From contig JBFMFK010000003.1 in assembly GCA_040752125.1 (NCBI GenBank), positions 19,034 to 83,033 of the forward strand: a stretch of DNA of 64,000 nucleotides. The letters are read 5' to 3'. Every line of letters starts with the position of its first letter. Positions within the stretch are counted from its first letter, which is position 1. Shown piece after piece: positions 1,019 through 37,825 of the stretch. Under the pieces are notes generated by a model. That model did not search any database, was not told where the DNA came from, and saw only the letters and a program-made list of their open reading frames with translations. Both the position numbers and the translations under genes were made by a program. The DNA is from Patescibacteria group bacterium (GTDB lineage: Bacteria; Patescibacteriota; Minisyncoccia; UBA9983).

Positions 1019-2719
1019 ATGACATCCAGAGAAATCAGAAAAAAATTTTTGGAATTTTTTAAAGAGAAAGGACATACGATTATTCCATCAGCTTCATTGA
1101 TTCCGAATGAAACAGATCCTACTGTTCTTTTTACTACTGCTGGCATGCATCCTTTAGTGCCTTATCTTTTAGGAGCAGACCATCCCGGTGGAAAGCGAGT
1201 GGCAAATATCCAGAAATGCATCCGGACTGTTGATATAGATAAAGTGGGAGACAACAGTCATTTGACTTTTTTTGAAATGCTGGGCAACTGGTCTTTTGGT
1301 GATTATTTTAAGCGCGAGGCGATTGAATGGAGTTTGGAATTTTTAACTGATAAAAAATGGCTAGGAATTAATAAAAATAGAATTAGTGTGACAGTTTTTG
1401 CCGGTGATAAAGATGCGCCGCGAGACGAGGAATCAGCCAAAATCTGGCAATCACTCGGTATTCCTCAAAAAAGAATTTTTTACAAAGGCAAAGAGGATAA
1501 TTGGTGGGAACCAGCAGGAGCTACTGGGCCGTGTGGGCCAGATACAGAAATGTTTATTAACCTGCCTGACGGCAAGGCGGGTGGCACGGAAATCTGGAAT
1601 GATGTTTTTATGGAATACAACAAGAGAGCGGACGGGAAATATGAGATATTAAAACAAAAAAATGTTGATACTGGAATGGGATTGGAAAGAATTGCCATGA
1701 TAATGCAAGGGAAAGATAATGTTTATGAAACAGATTTGTTTGCGCCCGTAATAGAAAAAATTAAAGCAATATCTCTTACAAGTTACAAGTTACAAGTTAC
1801 AAGTTACAGAATTATCGCTGACCATATCAAGGCCGCCACTTTTATTATTGCTGATGGAGTGGAGCCATCAAATTTAGGCAGAGGATATGTGTTAAGAAGA
1901 TTGATTCGCAGAGCAATAAGGCATGGCCGGTTGTTAGGTATAGAAAAAAATTTTACAAAAGAAATTGCAGAAGTTGTCATGGATATTTATAAAGAACAAT
2001 ATCCAGAATTATTAAACAATAAATTAAAAATTATGAATGAACTAAAAAATGAAGAACAAAGATTTAAAAAAACACTAGAAAAAGGATTGAAAGAGTTTGA
2101 AAAAGGAACTGAGCCATTTATTCTTTTTACTACTTACGGTTTCCCTATAGAGTTAACGCAGGAATTAGCAAAAGAAAAAGGAATTGAAATAGATATAAAA
2201 AAATTTAATGAGCAATTAAAAGCACATCAGGAACTTTCGCGGACTGCTTCTGCAGGAATGTTTAAGGGCGGATTAGCAGATGACAGCGAACAAACAACAA
2301 AATATCATACTGCCACACATTTACTTTTGGCCGCATTGAGAAAAATATTGGGTGAGCATGTGATACAAAAAGGAAGCAATATTACAGAAAAAAGACTTAG
2401 GTTTGATTTTAATCATCCTCAAAAACTTACACACGAGCAGATTCAGACAATAGAAGATTTAGTGAATAAGAAAATTGAAGAAAAAATTCCTGTGCAAATG
2501 ACTGAAATGCATAAAGACGAAGCTTTAAAAACAACAAAGATTTCTTTTGATCCGTCAAAATATGGCGAAATAGTGAAAGTTTATCAAATAGGAGATTTTA
2601 GTATTGAACTTTGCGGCGGTCCTCATGTAAAATCAACCAGCGAATTAGGCCATTTTAAAATCATTAAAGAAGATGCCAGTTCAGCTGGTGTCCGCCGGAT
2701 AAGGGCGGTTTTGGAATAA
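1019..2719 (+). CDS. alaS: alanyl-tRNA synthetase, compact form (catalytic + tRNA-recognition + editing HxxxH/CxxxH, no C-Ala domain)
   Basis: It carries the class II AlaRS signature FTTAGMHPLVPYLLG plus RIIADHIKA and GRGYVLRRLIRRA. The editing-site motifs HTATHLLLAAL and CGGPHV are present. Length is 566 aa. Confidence 0.85.
   Translation: MTSREIRKKFLEFFKEKGHTIIPSASLIPNETDPTVLFTTAGMHPLVPYLLGADHPGGKRVANIQKCIRTVDIDKVGDNSHLTFFEMLGNWSFGDYFKREAIEWSLEFLTDKKWLGINKNRISVTVFAGDKDAPRDEESAKIWQSLGIPQKRIFYKGKEDNWWEPAGATGPCGPDTEMFINLPDGKAGGTEIWNDVFMEYNKRADGKYEILKQKNVDTGMGLERIAMIMQGKDNVYETDLFAPVIEKIKAISLTSYKLQVTSYRIIADHIKAATFIIADGVEPSNLGRGYVLRRLIRRAIRHGRLLGIEKNFTKEIAEVVMDIYKEQYPELLNNKLKIMNELKNEEQRFKKTLEKGLKEFEKGTEPFILFTTYGFPIELTQELAKEKGIEIDIKKFNEQLKAHQELSRTASAGMFKGGLADDSEQTTKYHTATHLLLAALRKILGEHVIQKGSNITEKRLRFDFNHPQKLTHEQIQTIEDLVNKKIEEKIPVQMTEMHKDEALKTTKISFDPSKYGEIVKVYQIGDFSIELCGGPHVKSTSELGHFKIIKEDASSAGVRRIRAVLE
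1777..1809. repeat. heptanucleotide tandem repeat (ACAAGTT)x4 inside the alaS coding sequence
   Basis: Direct read: cttACAAGTTACAAGTTACAAGTTACAAGTTACAGaatt, which encodes TSYKLQVTSYR in frame. Confidence 0.9.
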
Positions 2720-2746
2720 AGAAATAAATTTATTATAATATAATTA

Positions 2747-3937
2747 ATGGGTCTTTTTAGGAAAAACAAAAGTAAAAAGGAGCTTATCGCAATTATTGAT
2801 ATCTCCAGTGCCTCGGTGGGGGGAATGTTGTTGGAGAAAAGCCAGGGATCAAGAGAGATTATCTCTTCGGCGAGATATCCGATAAATTTCCTATTTGATA
2901 TAGATTTTCAGGCACATTGGAGATCTACAACAACTTCTATTAATAGGGTTTTAAGTGAGTTAACAAAGAATTATCAAAAAAGACCCGATAAGATTCTCTG
3001 CGTCTTTTCTCTTTTATGGGGTGTGAGCCAGACGAGGATAATTAAAGTGAGGAAAGAGCAATCATTTAAAGTAAAGAAAAATTTCTTGGACAAATTGATA
3101 AATGATGAAGTTAAAATTTTCAAAAGCCAATGGCAAAATAAGACGCCATCTCTCAAGGAAAGTTCTGAACTTATAGAAAGCGAAGCGATGAAAGTTGCCT
3201 TGAACGGATATTTTTTGCAGGATCCCGATGATAAACACGCGAAGACAATAGATATGTACGTTTATATGAGCTTGATTTTAAAAGAAGTGAGAGACAAAAC
3301 AAGAGAATTATTATCAAGATACCTTGGCGAAACTACGGTTTATTTTCACACTCTTCCCTATGTCATTTTTATTTTTTTAAGGGATGAATTAAATATCTCT
3401 GACAGGTTTATGTTTTTGGAAATAGGCGGTGAGACATCAGAATTATCCACAATAAAAGATGGCATTCTGGAAGAAACCATTTCCTTTCCCAAAGGGAGAA
3501 ATTTCTTGATAAGGAAAATAGCTACTGAATTAAAAACTTTTATAGATGATGCAGAATCGAATTTAAAAAGTTTCAGAGAAAAACATATCTCCAATCATCT
3601 CAGTGCAGGGATTGAAAAAATAATTGATGATAATAAAAAAAATTGGTATGAATATTTTTACAGAATATTCAGTGATCTTTCTCAAGATTGCCCCTTGCCT
3701 CGAGACATATTTGTTCTTGGTGATAAAACGATTACTCCAGAGATAATAGATTTTTTGAAAGATGATTCTTTTTCAAAATTTACCACCCTGGGAAAGCCCC
3801 TAGAAGTCAAGGAGATATCAGCGGAGGACTTAAGTCATTATTTCAAATTTAGAGGAAGTTTCGATAAAGATAAAGATTTGTTTTTGATGATTGAAAGTTT
3901 TTTTGCAGACAGATTTTTAAATTACAATATAAAATAA
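2747..3937 (+). CDS. hypothetical protein, possibly actin-like (ASKHA) ATPase fold (FtsA/PilM-like)
   Basis: The N-terminal IAIIDISSASVGG and the later FLEIGGETSELSTI resemble the phosphate-1 and phosphate-2 motifs of the actin/FtsA/PilM family. The match is weak. Confidence 0.35.
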   Translation: MGLFRKNKSKKELIAIIDISSASVGGMLLEKSQGSREIISSARYPINFLFDIDFQAHWRSTTTSINRVLSELTKNYQKRPDKILCVFSLLWGVSQTRIIKVRKEQSFKVKKNFLDKLINDEVKIFKSQWQNKTPSLKESSELIESEAMKVALNGYFLQDPDDKHAKTIDMYVYMSLILKEVRDKTRELLSRYLGETTVYFHTLPYVIFIFLRDELNISDRFMFLEIGGETSELSTIKDGILEETISFPKGRNFLIRKIATELKTFIDDAESNLKSFREKHISNHLSAGIEKIIDDNKKNWYEYFYRIFSDLSQDCPLPRDIFVLGDKTITPEIIDFLKDDSFSKFTTLGKPLEVKEISAEDLSHYFKFRGSFDKDKDLFLMIESFFADRFLNYNIK

Positions 3938-3947
3938 ATTTTTTATT

Positions 3948-5186
3948 ATGTCCCCTAAAATCCTAGAAGACGTTATAAGAAAAAAGAAGATTGAGATTAT
4001 TCCGCAGGCGCCAGCGATTACAAAGACGTGCCGTGGAAAAACTAAAAGAAAATTCTCTTTGAAGATTCTTTTTTGGGTTTTTATTTCTCTTGCCGTTATT
4101 TTCTTTTTGATTATCCTAATAAGTTTTTTTGTTTCAGCCACAGTTAAATATACCCCCAAACAAGAGCTGTTTTCAGCAGATTTAAATATGAAGGCATTTA
4201 GGGGGAATGTTAAAAATAATTCTCTGTTATTTGAAATTATCCAAATGAGCTATGAAGCTTCTCAGTCTTTAGCCGCAACCGAAGTCAAAAATGTTGAGTC
4301 AAGGGCAAATGGCATTATTATCATTTATAATAATTTCAGTTCCAATTCCCAAGTTTTAATTAAAAACACTCGTTTTGAGACGCCTGACGGGAAGATTTAT
4401 AGAATAAATGAAACTATCACTGTTCCCGGGATACAAAAGAGAGATAGCGGTAATATCCCCGGATCACTGGAAGTGAAAGTCTACGCAGATAAGCCAGGCG
4501 ATAAATATAATATCGGCTTGACTGATTTTACAATACCCGGCTTTAAGGGCGACCCGCGTTATGAAAAAATTTACGGCCGATCCAAAACAAATATGTCAGG
4601 AGGATTCATTGGTAAGGCAGCTGTTTTAAGCCAGACAGATATTGATAAAATCAATTTGGTCCTCAGCGATAAAATCAAAAAACATCTGGAAGAAGAAATA
4701 ACAAGCAAAAAACCAAATGGCTTTATTCTTTTCAATAAAGCTCTGATGATTAATCTTGAAGATGCGGTTGAAAATCCTAAGGTCGGAGATGTCGGAGATA
4801 AATTTATTTTTAAAAAGAAGGGGGTGGCAACAGGATTTCTCTTGCCTGAAGAATCTTTTACAAGTCAGATATTGAAAAATTATTTGAGCGAAAATGAAGT
4901 GGCAGAGGTTCGCCTTTTAGATGCTGAGAAACTTGATTTTACTCTTATCAGCAGCAATCAGGATAATACAGAGATTGTCTTTAAAGTAAAAGGAAATGTG
5001 CGCGCTGTTTGGAAAGTTGATGAAGATTCTTTAAGTAATGATCTTTTGAATATCAAAGACAAGAACTATGCTGCTGTGTTTAAAAATTATCCTGCGGTTG
5101 AAAGGGCGGAAATATCTTTCAAGCCATCATGGTGGCAGAATATGCCCAGAAAAAAGTCAAAGATTAAATTTGAAGAGGTCTTGTAA
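3948..5186 (+). CDS. hypothetical membrane-anchored protein (single N-terminal TM helix, large extracytoplasmic domain)
   Basis: The ORF is 412 aa with a hydrophobic segment FWVFISLAVIFFLIILISFFV near the N-terminus. No recognisable catalytic motif. Confidence 0.4.
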   Translation: MSPKILEDVIRKKKIEIIPQAPAITKTCRGKTKRKFSLKILFWVFISLAVIFFLIILISFFVSATVKYTPKQELFSADLNMKAFRGNVKNNSLLFEIIQMSYEASQSLAATEVKNVESRANGIIIIYNNFSSNSQVLIKNTRFETPDGKIYRINETITVPGIQKRDSGNIPGSLEVKVYADKPGDKYNIGLTDFTIPGFKGDPRYEKIYGRSKTNMSGGFIGKAAVLSQTDIDKINLVLSDKIKKHLEEEITSKKPNGFILFNKALMINLEDAVENPKVGDVGDKFIFKKKGVATGFLLPEESFTSQILKNYLSENEVAEVRLLDAEKLDFTLISSNQDNTEIVFKVKGNVRAVWKVDEDSLSNDLLNIKDKNYAAVFKNYPAVERAEISFKPSWWQNMPRKKSKIKFEEVL

Positions 5187-5248
5187 AAATATTTTCAATC
5201 CGGTATCATTTAATCAAAGATAAAATTCCTTATATTAAAGGAGGTTGA

Positions 5249-5686
5249 ATGAAAAAAATCTTAATTTTGGTTTTTGTCTTTGCATTTTTTTTCACCAGCA
5301 ACTGTCTGTTTCTTGAAAAGATGCAAGGTAAAATCTGGGATTTTTTCTTTAAGAAGAAAAATGAATACTATGAAGCGATTGCTTCTTGGTATGGTCCGGG
5401 GTTCTGGGGCAAGTGCCGCGCTGACGGAAAAATCTATCATTTAGATGACAACAAAATTTTTGTTGCTCATAAAGATTATCCTCTTGGAACAAGATTAAAA
5501 ATAACAAACCTGAATAATGGAAAAACCATCGTGGCGAAAGTTCTTGATAGAGGCCCTTATATTTATGGTCGGGAGATAGATCTCTCGTATGGAGCGGCAA
5601 AAATTTTAGGCGCCATAGAACCCGGTTTAATACCGGTAAGAATTGAAAAAATTGAACATTTTTCTTCAAATAGGCGATACCGCTAA
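5249..5686 (+). CDS. rlpA: RlpA-like double-psi beta-barrel lipoprotein (septal ring lytic transglycosylase RlpA family)
   Basis: It has a signal peptide and the core ASWYGPGFWGK...GKTIVAKVLDRGPY characteristic of the RlpA DPBB domain. A strong RBS aaaGGAGGttgaATG precedes it. Confidence 0.75.
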   Translation: MKKILILVFVFAFFFTSNCLFLEKMQGKIWDFFFKKKNEYYEAIASWYGPGFWGKCRADGKIYHLDDNKIFVAHKDYPLGTRLKITNLNNGKTIVAKVLDRGPYIYGREIDLSYGAAKILGAIEPGLIPVRIEKIEHFSSNRRYR

Positions 5687-35331: not shown

Positions 35332-36729
35332 ATGGAAAGATCTTCAATCAAAGATTTAAAAAATAAAATAGGAAAGAGTGTGAAAATTTCCGGCTGGGTA
35401 GATGCACGAAGAGACCATGGTAAATTGATTTTTCTTGACCTGCGCGATGCGGGTGAAAAAGTGCAAACAGTAATCCTGCCTGAGAAAAAAGAAGTCCATC
35501 ATTTAGGAGAAAAAATTAGGCCCGAATGGATTTTAGAAATGATAGGGGAAGTCAAAAAACGCCCTGAGAAAATGGTCAATCCAGAGCTGTTGCTCGGAGA
35601 TATAGAAATTGAAATTGATAAGATAATAATTCTAAATCAATCAAAAACGCCCCCATTTGATTTAAGCACTAGTGGCTATGAAGTTGATGAGGAAATCCGT
35701 CTTCTATACCGTTATCTGGATCTGCGGCGGCAGAGACTCCAGAAAAATTTAAAAATTCGCCATGAAATAATAAAATTTATCCGCGATGAACTTTCAGAAA
35801 GGGGCTTTATAGAAATAGAAACTCCGCTTTTAACTAAATCTACACCAGAAGGAGCGCGCGATTATGTAGTGCCTTCACGCCTTCACCCAGGAAAATTTTA
35901 TGCTCTTCCGCAATCGCCCCAGCAATACAAACAGCTTTTAATGGTCGCCGGGATAGAAAAATATTTTCAAATCGCCAAGTGTCTGCGCGATGAAGATACC
36001 AGAGGAGACAGACAGCCGGAATTTACACAGTTGGATCTGGAGATGAGTTTTATTGATGAAAATGAAGTAATGAATTTAATTGAAGAAATGATGATCAAAA
36101 TTATTGAGAAATTTTTTCCAAACAATAGAATTTTAAAAAGGCCCTTCCCAAGAGAAAAATACGGCGATGTCATTAAGAATCATCAAACTGACGCTCCAGA
36201 TATTAGAAACAATAAAAGCAATAATGCTGAATTGGCATTTTTGTGGGTGACAGATTTTCCTCTTTTTGAATATTCTGACAAAGAAAAAAGATTAGTTTCA
36301 GTTCATCATCCTTTTACCAGTCCGCATTTGGATGAAATTGAAATGTTGGATAAATTTCCCAAACAAATAAGAGCAAGAGCATATGATTTGGTTTTGAATG
36401 GTTTTGAGATAGGCGGCGGATCAATCAGAATATACCAAAGAGATTTGCAGGAAAAGATTTTTAAAATTTTGGGCATTAAGCCAAAGGTTTATAATACACA
36501 ATTCGGGCATTTACTTGAGGCATTTGAATTCGGCGTTCCACCACACGGCGGAATCGCTTTGGGTTTAGACAGATTGATCGCTATTCTTCAAGATGAACCC
36601 AATATCCGCGAAGTTATTGCTTTTCCAAAAACCGGCGACGGAAGAGACCTAATGATGAATGCGCCAACAGAAATTGACAAAGAACAACTCAAAGAACTGG
36701 ACATTGAAATCAAAAAAAAGAAATATTAA
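35332..36729 (+). CDS. aspS: aspartyl-tRNA synthetase, short archaeal/type-2 form
   Basis: An OB-fold N-terminus is followed by QSPQQYKQLL and FRDEDTR-like CLRDEDTRGDRQPEFTQLD. The C-terminus ends in GLDRLIAIL. Confidence 0.9.
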   Translation: MERSSIKDLKNKIGKSVKISGWVDARRDHGKLIFLDLRDAGEKVQTVILPEKKEVHHLGEKIRPEWILEMIGEVKKRPEKMVNPELLLGDIEIEIDKIIILNQSKTPPFDLSTSGYEVDEEIRLLYRYLDLRRQRLQKNLKIRHEIIKFIRDELSERGFIEIETPLLTKSTPEGARDYVVPSRLHPGKFYALPQSPQQYKQLLMVAGIEKYFQIAKCLRDEDTRGDRQPEFTQLDLEMSFIDENEVMNLIEEMMIKIIEKFFPNNRILKRPFPREKYGDVIKNHQTDAPDIRNNKSNNAELAFLWVTDFPLFEYSDKEKRLVSVHHPFTSPHLDEIEMLDKFPKQIRARAYDLVLNGFEIGGGSIRIYQRDLQEKIFKILGIKPKVYNTQFGHLLEAFEFGVPPHGGIALGLDRLIAILQDEPNIREVIAFPKTGDGRDLMMNAPTEIDKEQLKELDIEIKKKKY

Positions 36730-37078
36730 TGACCTAATGACCTAAACCTTGTTTAGGTCAAGACAAAAATTGAGATTGAAGTTTGGGGATATCTTGCATC
36801 CAACACCACCCCTAATTGCACGTTGGTTATTTGGTATGAATGCGCAAGTTTGTTGCCAAGACCACTTTTACGTCCAGGCTCTGATATTAGCGATGCCAAA
36901 TGGGTGACAAAAAGAGAAGTAAAAAAATTTTGCGATTCTGACGTCATTTCTCTATGGCCAAAAGAAATTAAAAAATATTTCGGAGTTAAAATAAGGTAGC
37001 CTAAAGCTACCTTTTTTATTTATTATTTAGAAAACTCAGCCCATGCCCCAAACTTAGTTTAGGTCAAATTTAGGTCAA
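36729..37078. mobile_element. ~350-bp element bounded by inverted TGACCTAA repeats (left TGACCTAATGACCTAAAC-cttg-TTTAGGTCA; right GTTTAGGTCAAATTTAGGTCAA) enclosing an 88-codon start-less gene remnant and its terminator; MITE-like or decayed cassette
   Basis: Direct read of the repeats. The internal frame (…VWGYLASNTTPNCTLVIWYEC…AKWVTKREVKKFCDSDVISLWPKEIKKYFGVKIR*) has no ATG, GTG or TTG. Confidence 0.3.
36994..37020 (+). terminator. rho-independent terminator (AGGTAGC-ctaaa-GCTACCT + TTTTTATTTATT)
   Basis: Direct read at the end of the enclosed gene remnant. Confidence 0.7.
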
Positions 37079-37114
37079 TTGAAAAAAACAGAAAAAATGT
37101 TAAAATAATTAGGT

Positions 37115-37825
37115 ATGTATGCAGTAAAAGTAGGGCAGTTTGAGGGACCGTTGGATCTGCTTTTAGAACTTATAGAAAGACACAAATTGTCAATCAATGA
37201 TATCTCCCTGGCGCAAATCACTGACCAATATTTAGAGCATCTTAAGCAATTAGATGGTTTTCCCATAGAAGAAGTGGCGCTTTTTATCACCATCGCCTCA
37301 ACATTAATACTGATTAAATCACACTCTTTAATACCTTCAATGGAATTAACCCCTGAAGAAGAAGAGAATATTGAAGAACTTGAGGAACGATTGAGGATAT
37401 ACAGACAGATTAAGACACTTTCCATCCATATAAAACAGATATTTTACAAAAACCCAGTTTTTGCAAGAGAGGGTTTTAAAAATATAACAATAGGCTTTAT
37501 AGAGCCGAAGGGCATATCTGTGGATAACTTATATGTCATATTTAAGAATGTAATAGATAGATTGCCTAAAGAAAACTGCCTTCCTGAAGTGAAAGTAAAA
37601 AAGATTATCAGTTTAGAGGAAAAAATAAAAGAATTGGCCGGCAGGATACAAGGTCAATTGGAACTCTCTTTCAGAGAGTTCGCAACTTCGAGAGCTGATA
37701 TGAAAGATAAAAAAATTGAAATGATAATAAGTTTTCTGGCGATGCTGGAAATGATCAAAAGAGAAATAATCATTGTGAATCAAATAGAATTATTCGGCGA
37801 AATCAATATTTGCAGATATGAATGA
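37115..37825 (+). CDS. scpA: segregation and condensation protein A
   Basis: The N-terminus GPLDLLLELIERHKLSINDISLAQITDQYL matches ScpA. Confidence 0.85.
   Translation: MYAVKVGQFEGPLDLLLELIERHKLSINDISLAQITDQYLEHLKQLDGFPIEEVALFITIASTLILIKSHSLIPSMELTPEEEENIEELEERLRIYRQIKTLSIHIKQIFYKNPVFAREGFKNITIGFIEPKGISVDNLYVIFKNVIDRLPKENCLPEVKVKKIISLEEKIKELAGRIQGQLELSFREFATSRADMKDKKIEMIISFLAMLEMIKREIIIVNQIELFGEINICRYE

Follow-up and report, generated by a model that had tools for sequence, protein, structure and literature searches.

What are the short inverted repeats that surround a gene fragment between aspS and scpA, and how did they come to lie there? The locus is part of a 64-kb stretch of DNA (hereafter the window) from a metagenome-assembled contig of Patescibacteria (candidate phyla radiation, CPR), in which the genes for aspartyl-tRNA synthetase and for segregation and condensation protein A are separated by two sets of repeats with a coding remnant between them (Table 1). 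A first-pass annotation had described the region as one element of about 350 bp bounded by inverted repeats, which would fit a miniature inverted-repeat transposable element (MITE), the remnant of a solo insertion sequence (IS) or the decayed remains of a cassette. Our analysis indicates that it probably consists of two clusters of repetitive extragenic palindromic (REP) sequences, which belong to a Patescibacteria family served by a REP-associated tyrosine transposase (RAYT) and which flank a truncated NUDIX gene in the gap between aspS and scpA. The earlier description was right to see repeats of a mobile-element kind, as they are REPs, non-autonomous palindromes served by a RAYT, but the single 350-bp unit dissolves into two independent clusters. 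At the locus itself, a pseudogene of ordinary kind lies between members of a REP family, and the correct annotation should be two REP clusters plus a NUDIX pseudogene instead of an insertion element or a small open reading frame (ORF).

Architecture and spread of the palindrome

The end sequences reported by the first-pass annotation are present, the left one at 36730-36760 (TGACCTAA TGACCTAAAC CTT GTTTAGGTCA) and the right one at 37057-37078 (GTTTAGGTCAA ATTTAGGTCAA). They contain the 8-mer TTAGGTCA/TGACCTAA, which occurs exactly five times in the window, each time within 36730-37078. Since shuffled sequence yields 1.86 copies per whole window, five copies in 350 bp are far beyond chance. These 8-mers are the arms of a 23-bp palindrome, TGACCYAAAC-NNN-GTTTRGGTCA (10-3-10), and each end holds its own complete palindrome (36738-36760 and 37044-37066) together with one extra arm on the outer side. 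Thus, the five copies were counted correctly, whereas their interpretation as terminal inverted repeats of one element did not hold. The two palindromes also align as a direct repeat of 25 nt with 84% identity, and the ends only seem to be inverted because each unit is itself palindromic. The stretch between the palindromes, previously given as a core of 270 bp, measures 283 bp and spans the gene remnant. A scan of the 64 kb with up to five mismatches detected only these two full palindromes. The statement that nothing comparable flanks neighbouring genes consequently applies to the window but not beyond it, as the same 23-mer is dispersed in related genomes.

With 23 nt, arms of 10 bp and a loop of 3 nt, the unit falls within the size range and stem-loop form of REPs (20-40 nt). 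As single-stranded DNA, the left palindrome (REP-L) folds at -8.6 kcal/mol (z = -4.5); the fold of the right one (REP-R) is weak, with only -4.4 kcal/mol for the minus strand. A 23-mer identical to REP-R was found in six loci of different genomes (L005, L013, L017, L018, L028 and L030), which identifies REP-R as a recurrent subtype and not as a decayed copy. Tandem extra arms like those of the window also accompany REPs in L001, L011, L013, L027 and L028, and the layout of the right cluster, a REP followed by an extra right arm, recurs in L028 and L013. The two units of the window do not form the inverted doublet known as REPIN (REP doublet forming a hairpin), as they lie far apart around the gene remnant. 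This layout was observed in L001, where two inverted REPs (2162-2204) form a 19-bp hairpin of -21.3 kcal/mol (z = -8).

To follow the palindrome through other genomes, we scanned one genome per species (185,579 species, 596 Gb) for the exact pattern TGNYCYAAAYYTWGTTTAGGTCA. The scan matched 29 stretches from about 16 genomes, with up to five contigs per genome, and all 29 belong to metagenome-assembled genomes of Patescibacteria, including Giovannonibacteria, Terrybacteria, Tagabacteria, Parcubacteria and others. Many Patescibacteria genomes of the Parcubacteria type, from ultra-small organisms, thus have this REP family in common. By chance, approximately two matches would be expected (estimated from 39 bits against 1.2e12 positions). 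A scan of viral contigs returned no match and hence no phage link for the palindrome. The genomes of the relatives were viewed as pieces of 8 kb, and the organism studied here as the 64 kb with its single REP locus. Most of the matched sites are intergenic, and for about half of them the distance to a stop codon is at most 17 nt or the two overlap, as is the case at aspS. The 23-mer has stop codons (TGA, TAA, TAG) across all three frames on both strands, which may explain why many genes end inside a REP. Identical 23-mers recur in genomes in which ScpA and AspS are only ~60-70% identical. The only tendency in the flanks of 30 distinct sites was a T before and an A after the unit, which extend the palindrome.

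One match stands apart. At L020 (1354-1376) the pattern lies inside tsaD and codes for DLNKVWD, a peptide that resembles a motif of the RAYT described below; it is probably one of the roughly two matches expected by chance.

The cognate Y1 transposase of related genomes

In six genomes, copies of the palindrome precede an ORF of 211-227 aa (~212 aa; Table 1), lie within it and also occur at its 3' end. Five of these loci (L011, L021, L024, L028 and L030) were contained in the palindrome scan, and L062 was reached via the protein. The ORF matches the Pfam family Y1_Tnp (PF01797) with 31.6 and 28.9 bits at a cut-off of 23, and H85, H87, Y145 and N149 are invariant in 31 sequences, which corresponds to the HUH and Y-x-x-x-N motifs. 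We detected 171 homologues at E ≤ 1e-10; among the matches listed, every one with a named organism comes from Patescibacteria, and the source of one distant member labels it RayT. The AlphaFold model of the protein has a pLDDT of 91, and its best Foldseek match in the Protein Data Bank (PDB) is 4ER8_A, the E. coli RAYT with its REP hairpin (E 2.6e-6; TM 0.69, target-normalised), followed by 2A6M and 2XM3, the TnpA proteins of IS608 and ISDra2 (E 5e-4 to 1e-3). The predicted fold is nearer to that of the monomeric RAYT 4ER8 than to IS200/IS605 TnpA.

Furthermore, all six REP-flanked RAYT genes carry a copy of the REP in frame, at codons ~55-61 and before the HUH motif, where it codes for DLNLVWD. 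The loop of this copy is a Leu codon, for which CTT, TTA and CTG were seen. In all six genomes the loop of the flanking REPs equals the in-gene loop or its reverse complement, and nine other REPs in four of these genomes match it as well. As the extragenic REPs share its loop, the in-gene copy could be a master template or could be kept matched to the REPs of the genome. The RAYT of L063, only 36% identical, has another repeat at its flanks, which is what one would expect if enzyme and repeat form cognate pairs. Upstream of each RAYT gene examined, a T plus the REP spans exactly from a -35 box (TTGACC) to a -10 box (AATAAT), and the start codon follows only 6-12 nt further on, so that the RAYT mRNA may be leaderless. 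The gene's stop codon is part of the downstream REP or of an extra arm directly ahead of that REP; in L062 it comes just past the REP. Regarding copy number, which was judged from genome fragments, no locus had two close copies of RAYT. L008 contains two Y1 paralogues (112-528 and 2468-3142) that are 31-34% identical to the REP-flanked RAYTs, with a REP (3858-3880) within 1.5 kb.

A REP or REPIN together with its RAYT (TnpA_REP) has been termed a 'REPtron', as in E. coli and Pseudomonas (PMC3116915, PMC3479197, PMC5581495, PMC6006769), and is defined as a Y1 gene with copies of its own dispersed palindrome on its flanks (PMC6006769, PMC3733652). The Patescibacteria pair resembles these systems in its short hairpin palindromes, which occur in extragenic DNA and often just past stop codons, in the HUH/Tyr (Y1) gene that is flanked by its own palindrome in six relatives, in the distant enzyme with a different repeat (L063) and in the inverted doublets with a long hairpin (L001). 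The 4ER8 complex as best match of the modelled fold is in line with this. In contrast to known REPtrons, the number of copies seen per genome was no more than a handful, and the hosts have very small genomes; classical REP families comprise tens to hundreds of copies, and REP/RAYT pairs have been described mainly from Proteobacteria, Cyanobacteria and few other phyla, in larger genomes. Genomes with tnpA_REP are also larger on average (PMC6006769). The Patescibacteria protein is longer than the 4ER8 chain (~212 aa vs 165 aa) and scores below the NCBIfam cut-off for RAYTs, and the window contains no RAYT gene. Canonical REPs are furthermore defined by a GT[AG]G or CGTC tag (PMC3733652, PMC6006769), which the Patescibacteria REP lacks.

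Within the TnpA_REP classification of Quentin et al. 2018 (PMC6006769), subclass 2.1 has a second motif set, NH[YF]H and Y[IV]HLNP, with FQ as middle motif and no associated REP. The motifs (N/T)HFH and Y(I/L)HLNP of the Patescibacteria proteins are similar, judged by motif and not by phylogeny, whereas their middle motif is FE (GHLFE) instead of FQ and a REP is present. In subclass 2.4, in-frame REPs are found as insertions that separate the HUH motif from the Tyr motif (PMC6006769). The Patescibacteria gene likewise contains an in-frame copy of its own REP, but this copy precedes the HUH motif and codes for a motif common to the six RAYTs. With the IS200/IS605 family (IS608, ISDra2), the system shares the fold matches 2A6M and 2XM3, similar palindromes at both ends of the transposase gene and, by analogy, a Y1 HUH transposase of the kind that recognises subterminal single-stranded hairpins. 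Unlike in that family, there is no tnpB, palindromes also occur alone and far from any transposase gene, and the stretch between the clusters of the window is the remnant of a host gene and not the body of an IS. By most of these tests, palindrome and transposase appear to be a REP/RAYT system, as far as can be judged from sequence and predicted structure.

Apparently, this REP family is new for the phylum: a literature search, within the scope of one library, brought up no publication connecting RAYT, REPIN or REP with Patescibacteria or the candidate phyla radiation. It is conceivable, but rather less than an even bet, that we are looking at the first REP/RAYT system in Patescibacteria (CPR) with an unusual logic, in which the REP is a coding segment inside the transposase gene. 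If so, the REP would act in genomes with almost no spare DNA, where the T-preceded 23-mer could serve as a cap for genes and a seed for promoters, and could bracket accessory genes like NUDIX or delete them. A low-copy REP family in which every base is conserved among streamlined genomes of deep divergence is relevant to two questions, namely whether a host function maintains REP/RAYT pairs and by what means REP sequence and enzyme stay matched. For this matching, the in-gene REP, whose synonymous-codon loop is common to the genomic copies, offers a testable handle.

The NUDIX stump and the aspS-scpA junction

The open frame between the repeats exists, although it comprises 80 codons (36757-36996) and not the 88 given in the first-pass annotation, whose frame crosses a TAG (36754-36756) that belongs to the repeat. 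A TTG at 36823 would provide a formal ORF of 58 aa; no Shine-Dalgarno-like sequence was seen ahead of it. A Pfam search with the 80-aa frame alone gave no match. A protein-word search with the same frame gave a single match, P0001, a protein of 137 aa (78% identity, 95% of the query, E 2.7e-34) that belongs to the NUDIX family (PF00293 at 55 bits). The stump aligns to residues ~60-133 of P0001 and represents about the last 73-80 codons of the 137-aa gene (its 3' ~55%), which bears out the earlier suggestion that the frame is the C-terminal part of a longer gene. In the codon alignment of stump and P0001 (73 codons), nucleotide identity is 83%, the ratio of nonsynonymous to synonymous rates (dN/dS) is 0.18, and there are no frameshifts or stops. 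From this it follows that the truncation is recent compared with the divergence of the two lineages.

P0001 has a Nudix box (…GETIEPHESDISGLLRGIWEEAGI…) of the form G-x5-E-x7-RGIWEEAGI, which ends with RGIWEEAGI at residues ~53-61. The frame in the window starts just past this box, at IEIEVWGY, and thus promoter, start codon and catalytic motif are all absent from the stump. The family signature (GX5EX7REUXEEXGU in a fold of ~130 aa) is wholly missing as well, so that no catalytic function is possible; the likeness to MutT/NUDIX hydrolases, as a pseudogene, lies in the alignment of the stump with the C-terminal half of a PF00293 protein. At the DNA level, homology to L001 begins at ~36764-36769, which corresponds to codon ~58-60 of the intact gene, and REP-L ends at 36760. 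This places the breakpoint ~3-8 nt from the foot of the left REP. The strong terminator noted earlier is present, with a stem at 36993-37013 followed by the T-run TTTTTATTT, and its counterpart at the homologous position of L001 shows compensatory changes in the stem (GGCGGTC/GACCGCC).

Comparison with the relatives revealed what this gene had been. In L001 (AspS C-terminus ~70-72% identical), the junction holds, in order, a promoter with ~190 nt of non-coding sequence and a terminator, a palindrome, an intact NUDIX gene, a gene for a dihydroorotate-dehydrogenase (DHOD)-like protein (280 aa) and two to three palindromes. The core is the C-terminal remnant of a NUDIX hydrolase gene and hence a decaying resident accessory gene, since in L001 the NUDIX gene is intact, occupies the same junction and has the same repeats to its left and right. 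The first-pass annotation had itself argued that an intact gene between the same flanks in a relative would speak for decay of a resident gene, and its inserted-element reading does not survive this observation. A metagenome scan with P0001 returned only homologues with at most 53% identity and no second copy of the core. The nearest of the other NUDIX homologues (L034-L036, 44-53% identity) have no REP, aspS or scpA nearby, which indicates that NUDIX homologues are not generally flanked by REPs.

The remaining relatives differ at this position. A direct abutment of aspS and scpA, for which the first-pass annotation had proposed to look, was found in L003 (ScpA 69% identical, 21-nt spacer) and L004 (ScpA 63%, 2-nt spacer). 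L025 (ScpA 62%) has one palindrome 4 nt past the aspS stop, followed by a terminator. Others carry unrelated genes: a VTT/DedA-type gene in L064 (ScpA 64%) and an AdoMet_dc gene in L065 (ScpA 63%), both without palindromes. In L002 (ScpA 73%), the contig lacks the aspS end, and an unrelated ORF of 89 aa lies upstream of scpA. As the junction is empty, occupied by a lone REP or filled with differing genes, it is a variable slot for accessory genes in this lineage.

Two features of the L001 junction deserve mention in their own right. The gap between aspS and NUDIX (375-597) contains a near-consensus promoter (TTGACA, 17 nt, TATAAT), ~190 nt without ORF and a terminator, and may be a small RNA gene; it had no Rfam match and a fold z-score of only -1.6. 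Its terminator is identical in 37 of 43 positions to the one that follows the 89-aa ORF upstream of scpA in L002, which comes from the same sample. A comparison of the non-coding block (323-600) with this small ORF, of which it might have been a decayed version, found a match in the terminators alone. The gene after NUDIX (1285-2127), which has no counterpart in the window, encodes a divergent protein that reaches 30.9 bits with Pfam DHO_dh, just above the cut-off, and NCBIfam scores far below the respective cut-offs.

Origin of the locus and competing explanations

By analogy with the E. coli RAYT and IS608-type Y1 enzymes, the REPs would have been placed in trans, as single-stranded hairpins, by a RAYT that is encoded elsewhere or has since been lost. 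Subsequently, ~255 bp with the NUDIX promoter and N-terminus may have disappeared in a REP-associated event; we rate this step, which likewise leans on analogy, as slightly less likely than not. The loss may have come about when two REPs recombined, or when the hairpin was cleaved or caused slippage at its foot. In the present arrangement, the left REP would form a 3' hairpin on the aspS mRNA, the orphan NUDIX terminator would end transcripts reading out of aspS, and scpAB could be read from a promoter-like site that closely follows the right REP (37079-37106). This site has 10 of 12 consensus matches and a TG before the -10 box, and it begins on the base after the last repeat arm.

Several observations weigh against the interpretation as RAYT-served REPs around a truncated NUDIX gene. 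Neither a GT[AG]G nor a CGTC tag at the hairpin foot proved to be conserved in column counts over the 30 distinct sites. With the NCBIfam model REP_Tyr_transpos (NF047646) the protein scores 29.5 bits at a cut-off of 80; in sequence searches of the PDB, a single RAYT sequence found no match and the RAYT profile reached only ISDra2 TnpA (E 0.011). No RAYT homologue was found in the 64-kb window by tblastn, and the REPs at the locus may be orphans without a RAYT in their own genome. The copy number is low: the 64 kb contain two full units plus three extra arms, and no related genome has more than five exact matches. The deletion junction, inspected by eye, has no clear microhomology, and the role of the REPs in the truncation of NUDIX is one we infer. 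Finally, L064 and L065 hold unrelated genes in the slot without any REP, which implies that REPs are not needed for turnover at this junction.

The presence of REPs on both sides of the insert in the window and in L001 could also mean that a REP-NUDIX(-DHOD-like)-REP cassette moved between lineages and into the slot as a unit, by means of a RAYT or by recombination at a resident REP, and that the window contains its decayed remains. L003 is nearer to the window than L001 in the AspS C-terminus (80% vs 72% identity), but has an empty junction. Between the window and L001, the proportion of synonymous differences (pS) is 0.41 in NUDIX (73 codons) and 0.67 in the aspS C-terminus (89 codons), a gap of ~2.7 standard errors by our estimate, although fewer than 100 codons were compared per gene and differences in codon usage could contribute. 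The lower pS and the empty L003 junction hint at a block that was shared more recently than the core genome. A lone REP such as that in L025 could serve as a landing site, and other small accessory genes are bracketed by REPs: an ORF of 117 aa in L007, which by eye and without domain search looks like the toxin of a toxin-antitoxin pair, one of 127 aa in L032 and one of 90 aa in L013. Against a mobile cassette speak the NUDIX homologues L034-L036, which lack REP, aspS and scpA in their vicinity, the REP-free genes in the slots of L064 and L065, and the view that REPtrons do not move as a unit (PMC6006769). Moreover, REPs may just accumulate in any non-essential intergenic DNA. Overall, we consider the transfer of such a cassette unlikely.

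The 10-3-10 geometry of the palindrome is also that of an operator for a dimeric transcription factor, possibly the Y1 protein as repressor, which would control the NUDIX operon and scpAB; the palindromes would then not be mobile repeats. In favour of this idea, the palindrome occupies exactly the space from -35 to -10 upstream of every RAYT gene examined, scpA of L001 is preceded by TTGACC, 17 nt, TAAAAT, 6 nt and ATG, and the right cluster of the window ends one base before the -35 box of the promoter-like site of scpA. However, approximately half of the sites are located at gene 3' ends or between convergent genes, one lies inside a group I intron in a 16S rRNA gene, and the gene associated with the sites is a HUH/Tyr nuclease and not a transcription factor gene. 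In addition, neither cluster of the window makes a -35/-10 pair on either strand, as read from the sequence. We therefore regard operators as improbable at this locus; autoregulation of RAYT via its own REP would be compatible with the REP/RAYT interpretation and not opposed to it.

Two further explanations have very little probability left. A single MITE or solo-IS remnant of ~350 bp with terminal inverted repeats would account for the mirror-symmetric look (arm, arm-arm ... arm-arm, arm) and for repeats of a transposase-associated family, but its core has an intact, resident homologue in L001 at this very locus, each end is a self-palindromic unit that also occurs singly elsewhere, no target-site duplication is present, and no second copy of the core was found, the 80-aa frame matching only P0001 and metagenome homologues not exceeding 53%. 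A mis-join during metagenome assembly, for which repeats are known places and which could have created a falsely truncated gene in this metagenome-assembled genome, is about equally hard to credit: the repeat of 23 bp is below usual final assembly k-mers, a REP inside the intact NUDIX gene would be required and none is present in L001, and the aspS and scpA flanks are syntenic with all relatives examined.

Other classes of sites were set aside by eye. For an integron attC, a dif/Xer site or a DNA-uptake sequence, no integrase was seen nearby, the GTTRRRY core is unmatched, there is one locus in 64 kb, and the palindrome is associated with a Y1 transposase; LexA, HrcA and NrdR boxes bear no resemblance to it.

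Table 1 Positions of the features at the aspS-scpA locus of the window and of the REP-flanked RAYT genes in related genomes.
Locus	Feature	Position	Strand	Remarks
Window	aspS (aspartyl-tRNA synthetase)	35332..36729	+	465-aa ORF; TAA stop directly abuts the first repeat arm
Window	Extra REP left arm TGACCTAA	36730..36737	.	Tandem partial duplicate of the next arm; TGA in the aspS frame
Window	REP-L, perfect 23-bp REP TGACCTAAAC-CTT-GTTTAGGTCA	36738..36760	.	10-bp arms, 3-nt loop
Window	NUDIX hydrolase pseudogene stump	36764..36999	+	About the last 78 codons plus TAG stop; P0001 match
Window	Intrinsic terminator of the former NUDIX gene	36993..37022	+	Stem AAGGTAGC/GCTACCTT plus T-run
Window	REP-R TGCCCCAAAC-TTA-GTTTAGGTCA	37044..37066	.	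Recurrent REP subtype; same 23-mer in other genomes
Window	Extra REP right arm ATTTAGGTCAA	37068..37078	.	11 nt after the preceding arm
Window	Promoter-like site for scpA	37079..37106	+	TTGAAA, 16 nt, TG-n-TAAAAT; consensus match only
Window	scpA (segregation and condensation protein A)	37115..37825	+	236 aa; P0002 100% identical, PF02616
L011	RAYT gene	4925-5563		
L024	RAYT gene	3220-3864		
L028	RAYT gene	3737-4372		
L030	RAYT gene	2515-3165		
L021	RAYT gene	1724-2371		
L062	RAYT gene	1501-2160		

Among the flanking genes, aspS of the window is 64-66% identical over its full length to the tRNA-synt_2 genes upstream of scpA in L004 and L025. An Rfam search of 36500-37300 with E up to 10 gave sub-threshold chance matches only, so that the region contains no known RNA family.

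Elsewhere among the matched genomes, two settings of the REP stand out. In L012, a copy (2714-2736) lies within a group I intron (2624-2824 within 1776-3964) that interrupts the 16S rRNA gene of a member of the Giovannonibacteria. Furthermore, a conserved module of ~115 nt, with the REP hairpin in its centre and two helices with compensatory changes, was observed in L009 (1410-1525), L014 (2445-2560, minus strand) and L026 (6997-7112). Genome CAZXFC01 contains two copies of this module and genome JACOXN01 one. Rfam returned no match for it, and it looks like an unknown structured RNA or a single-stranded DNA element.

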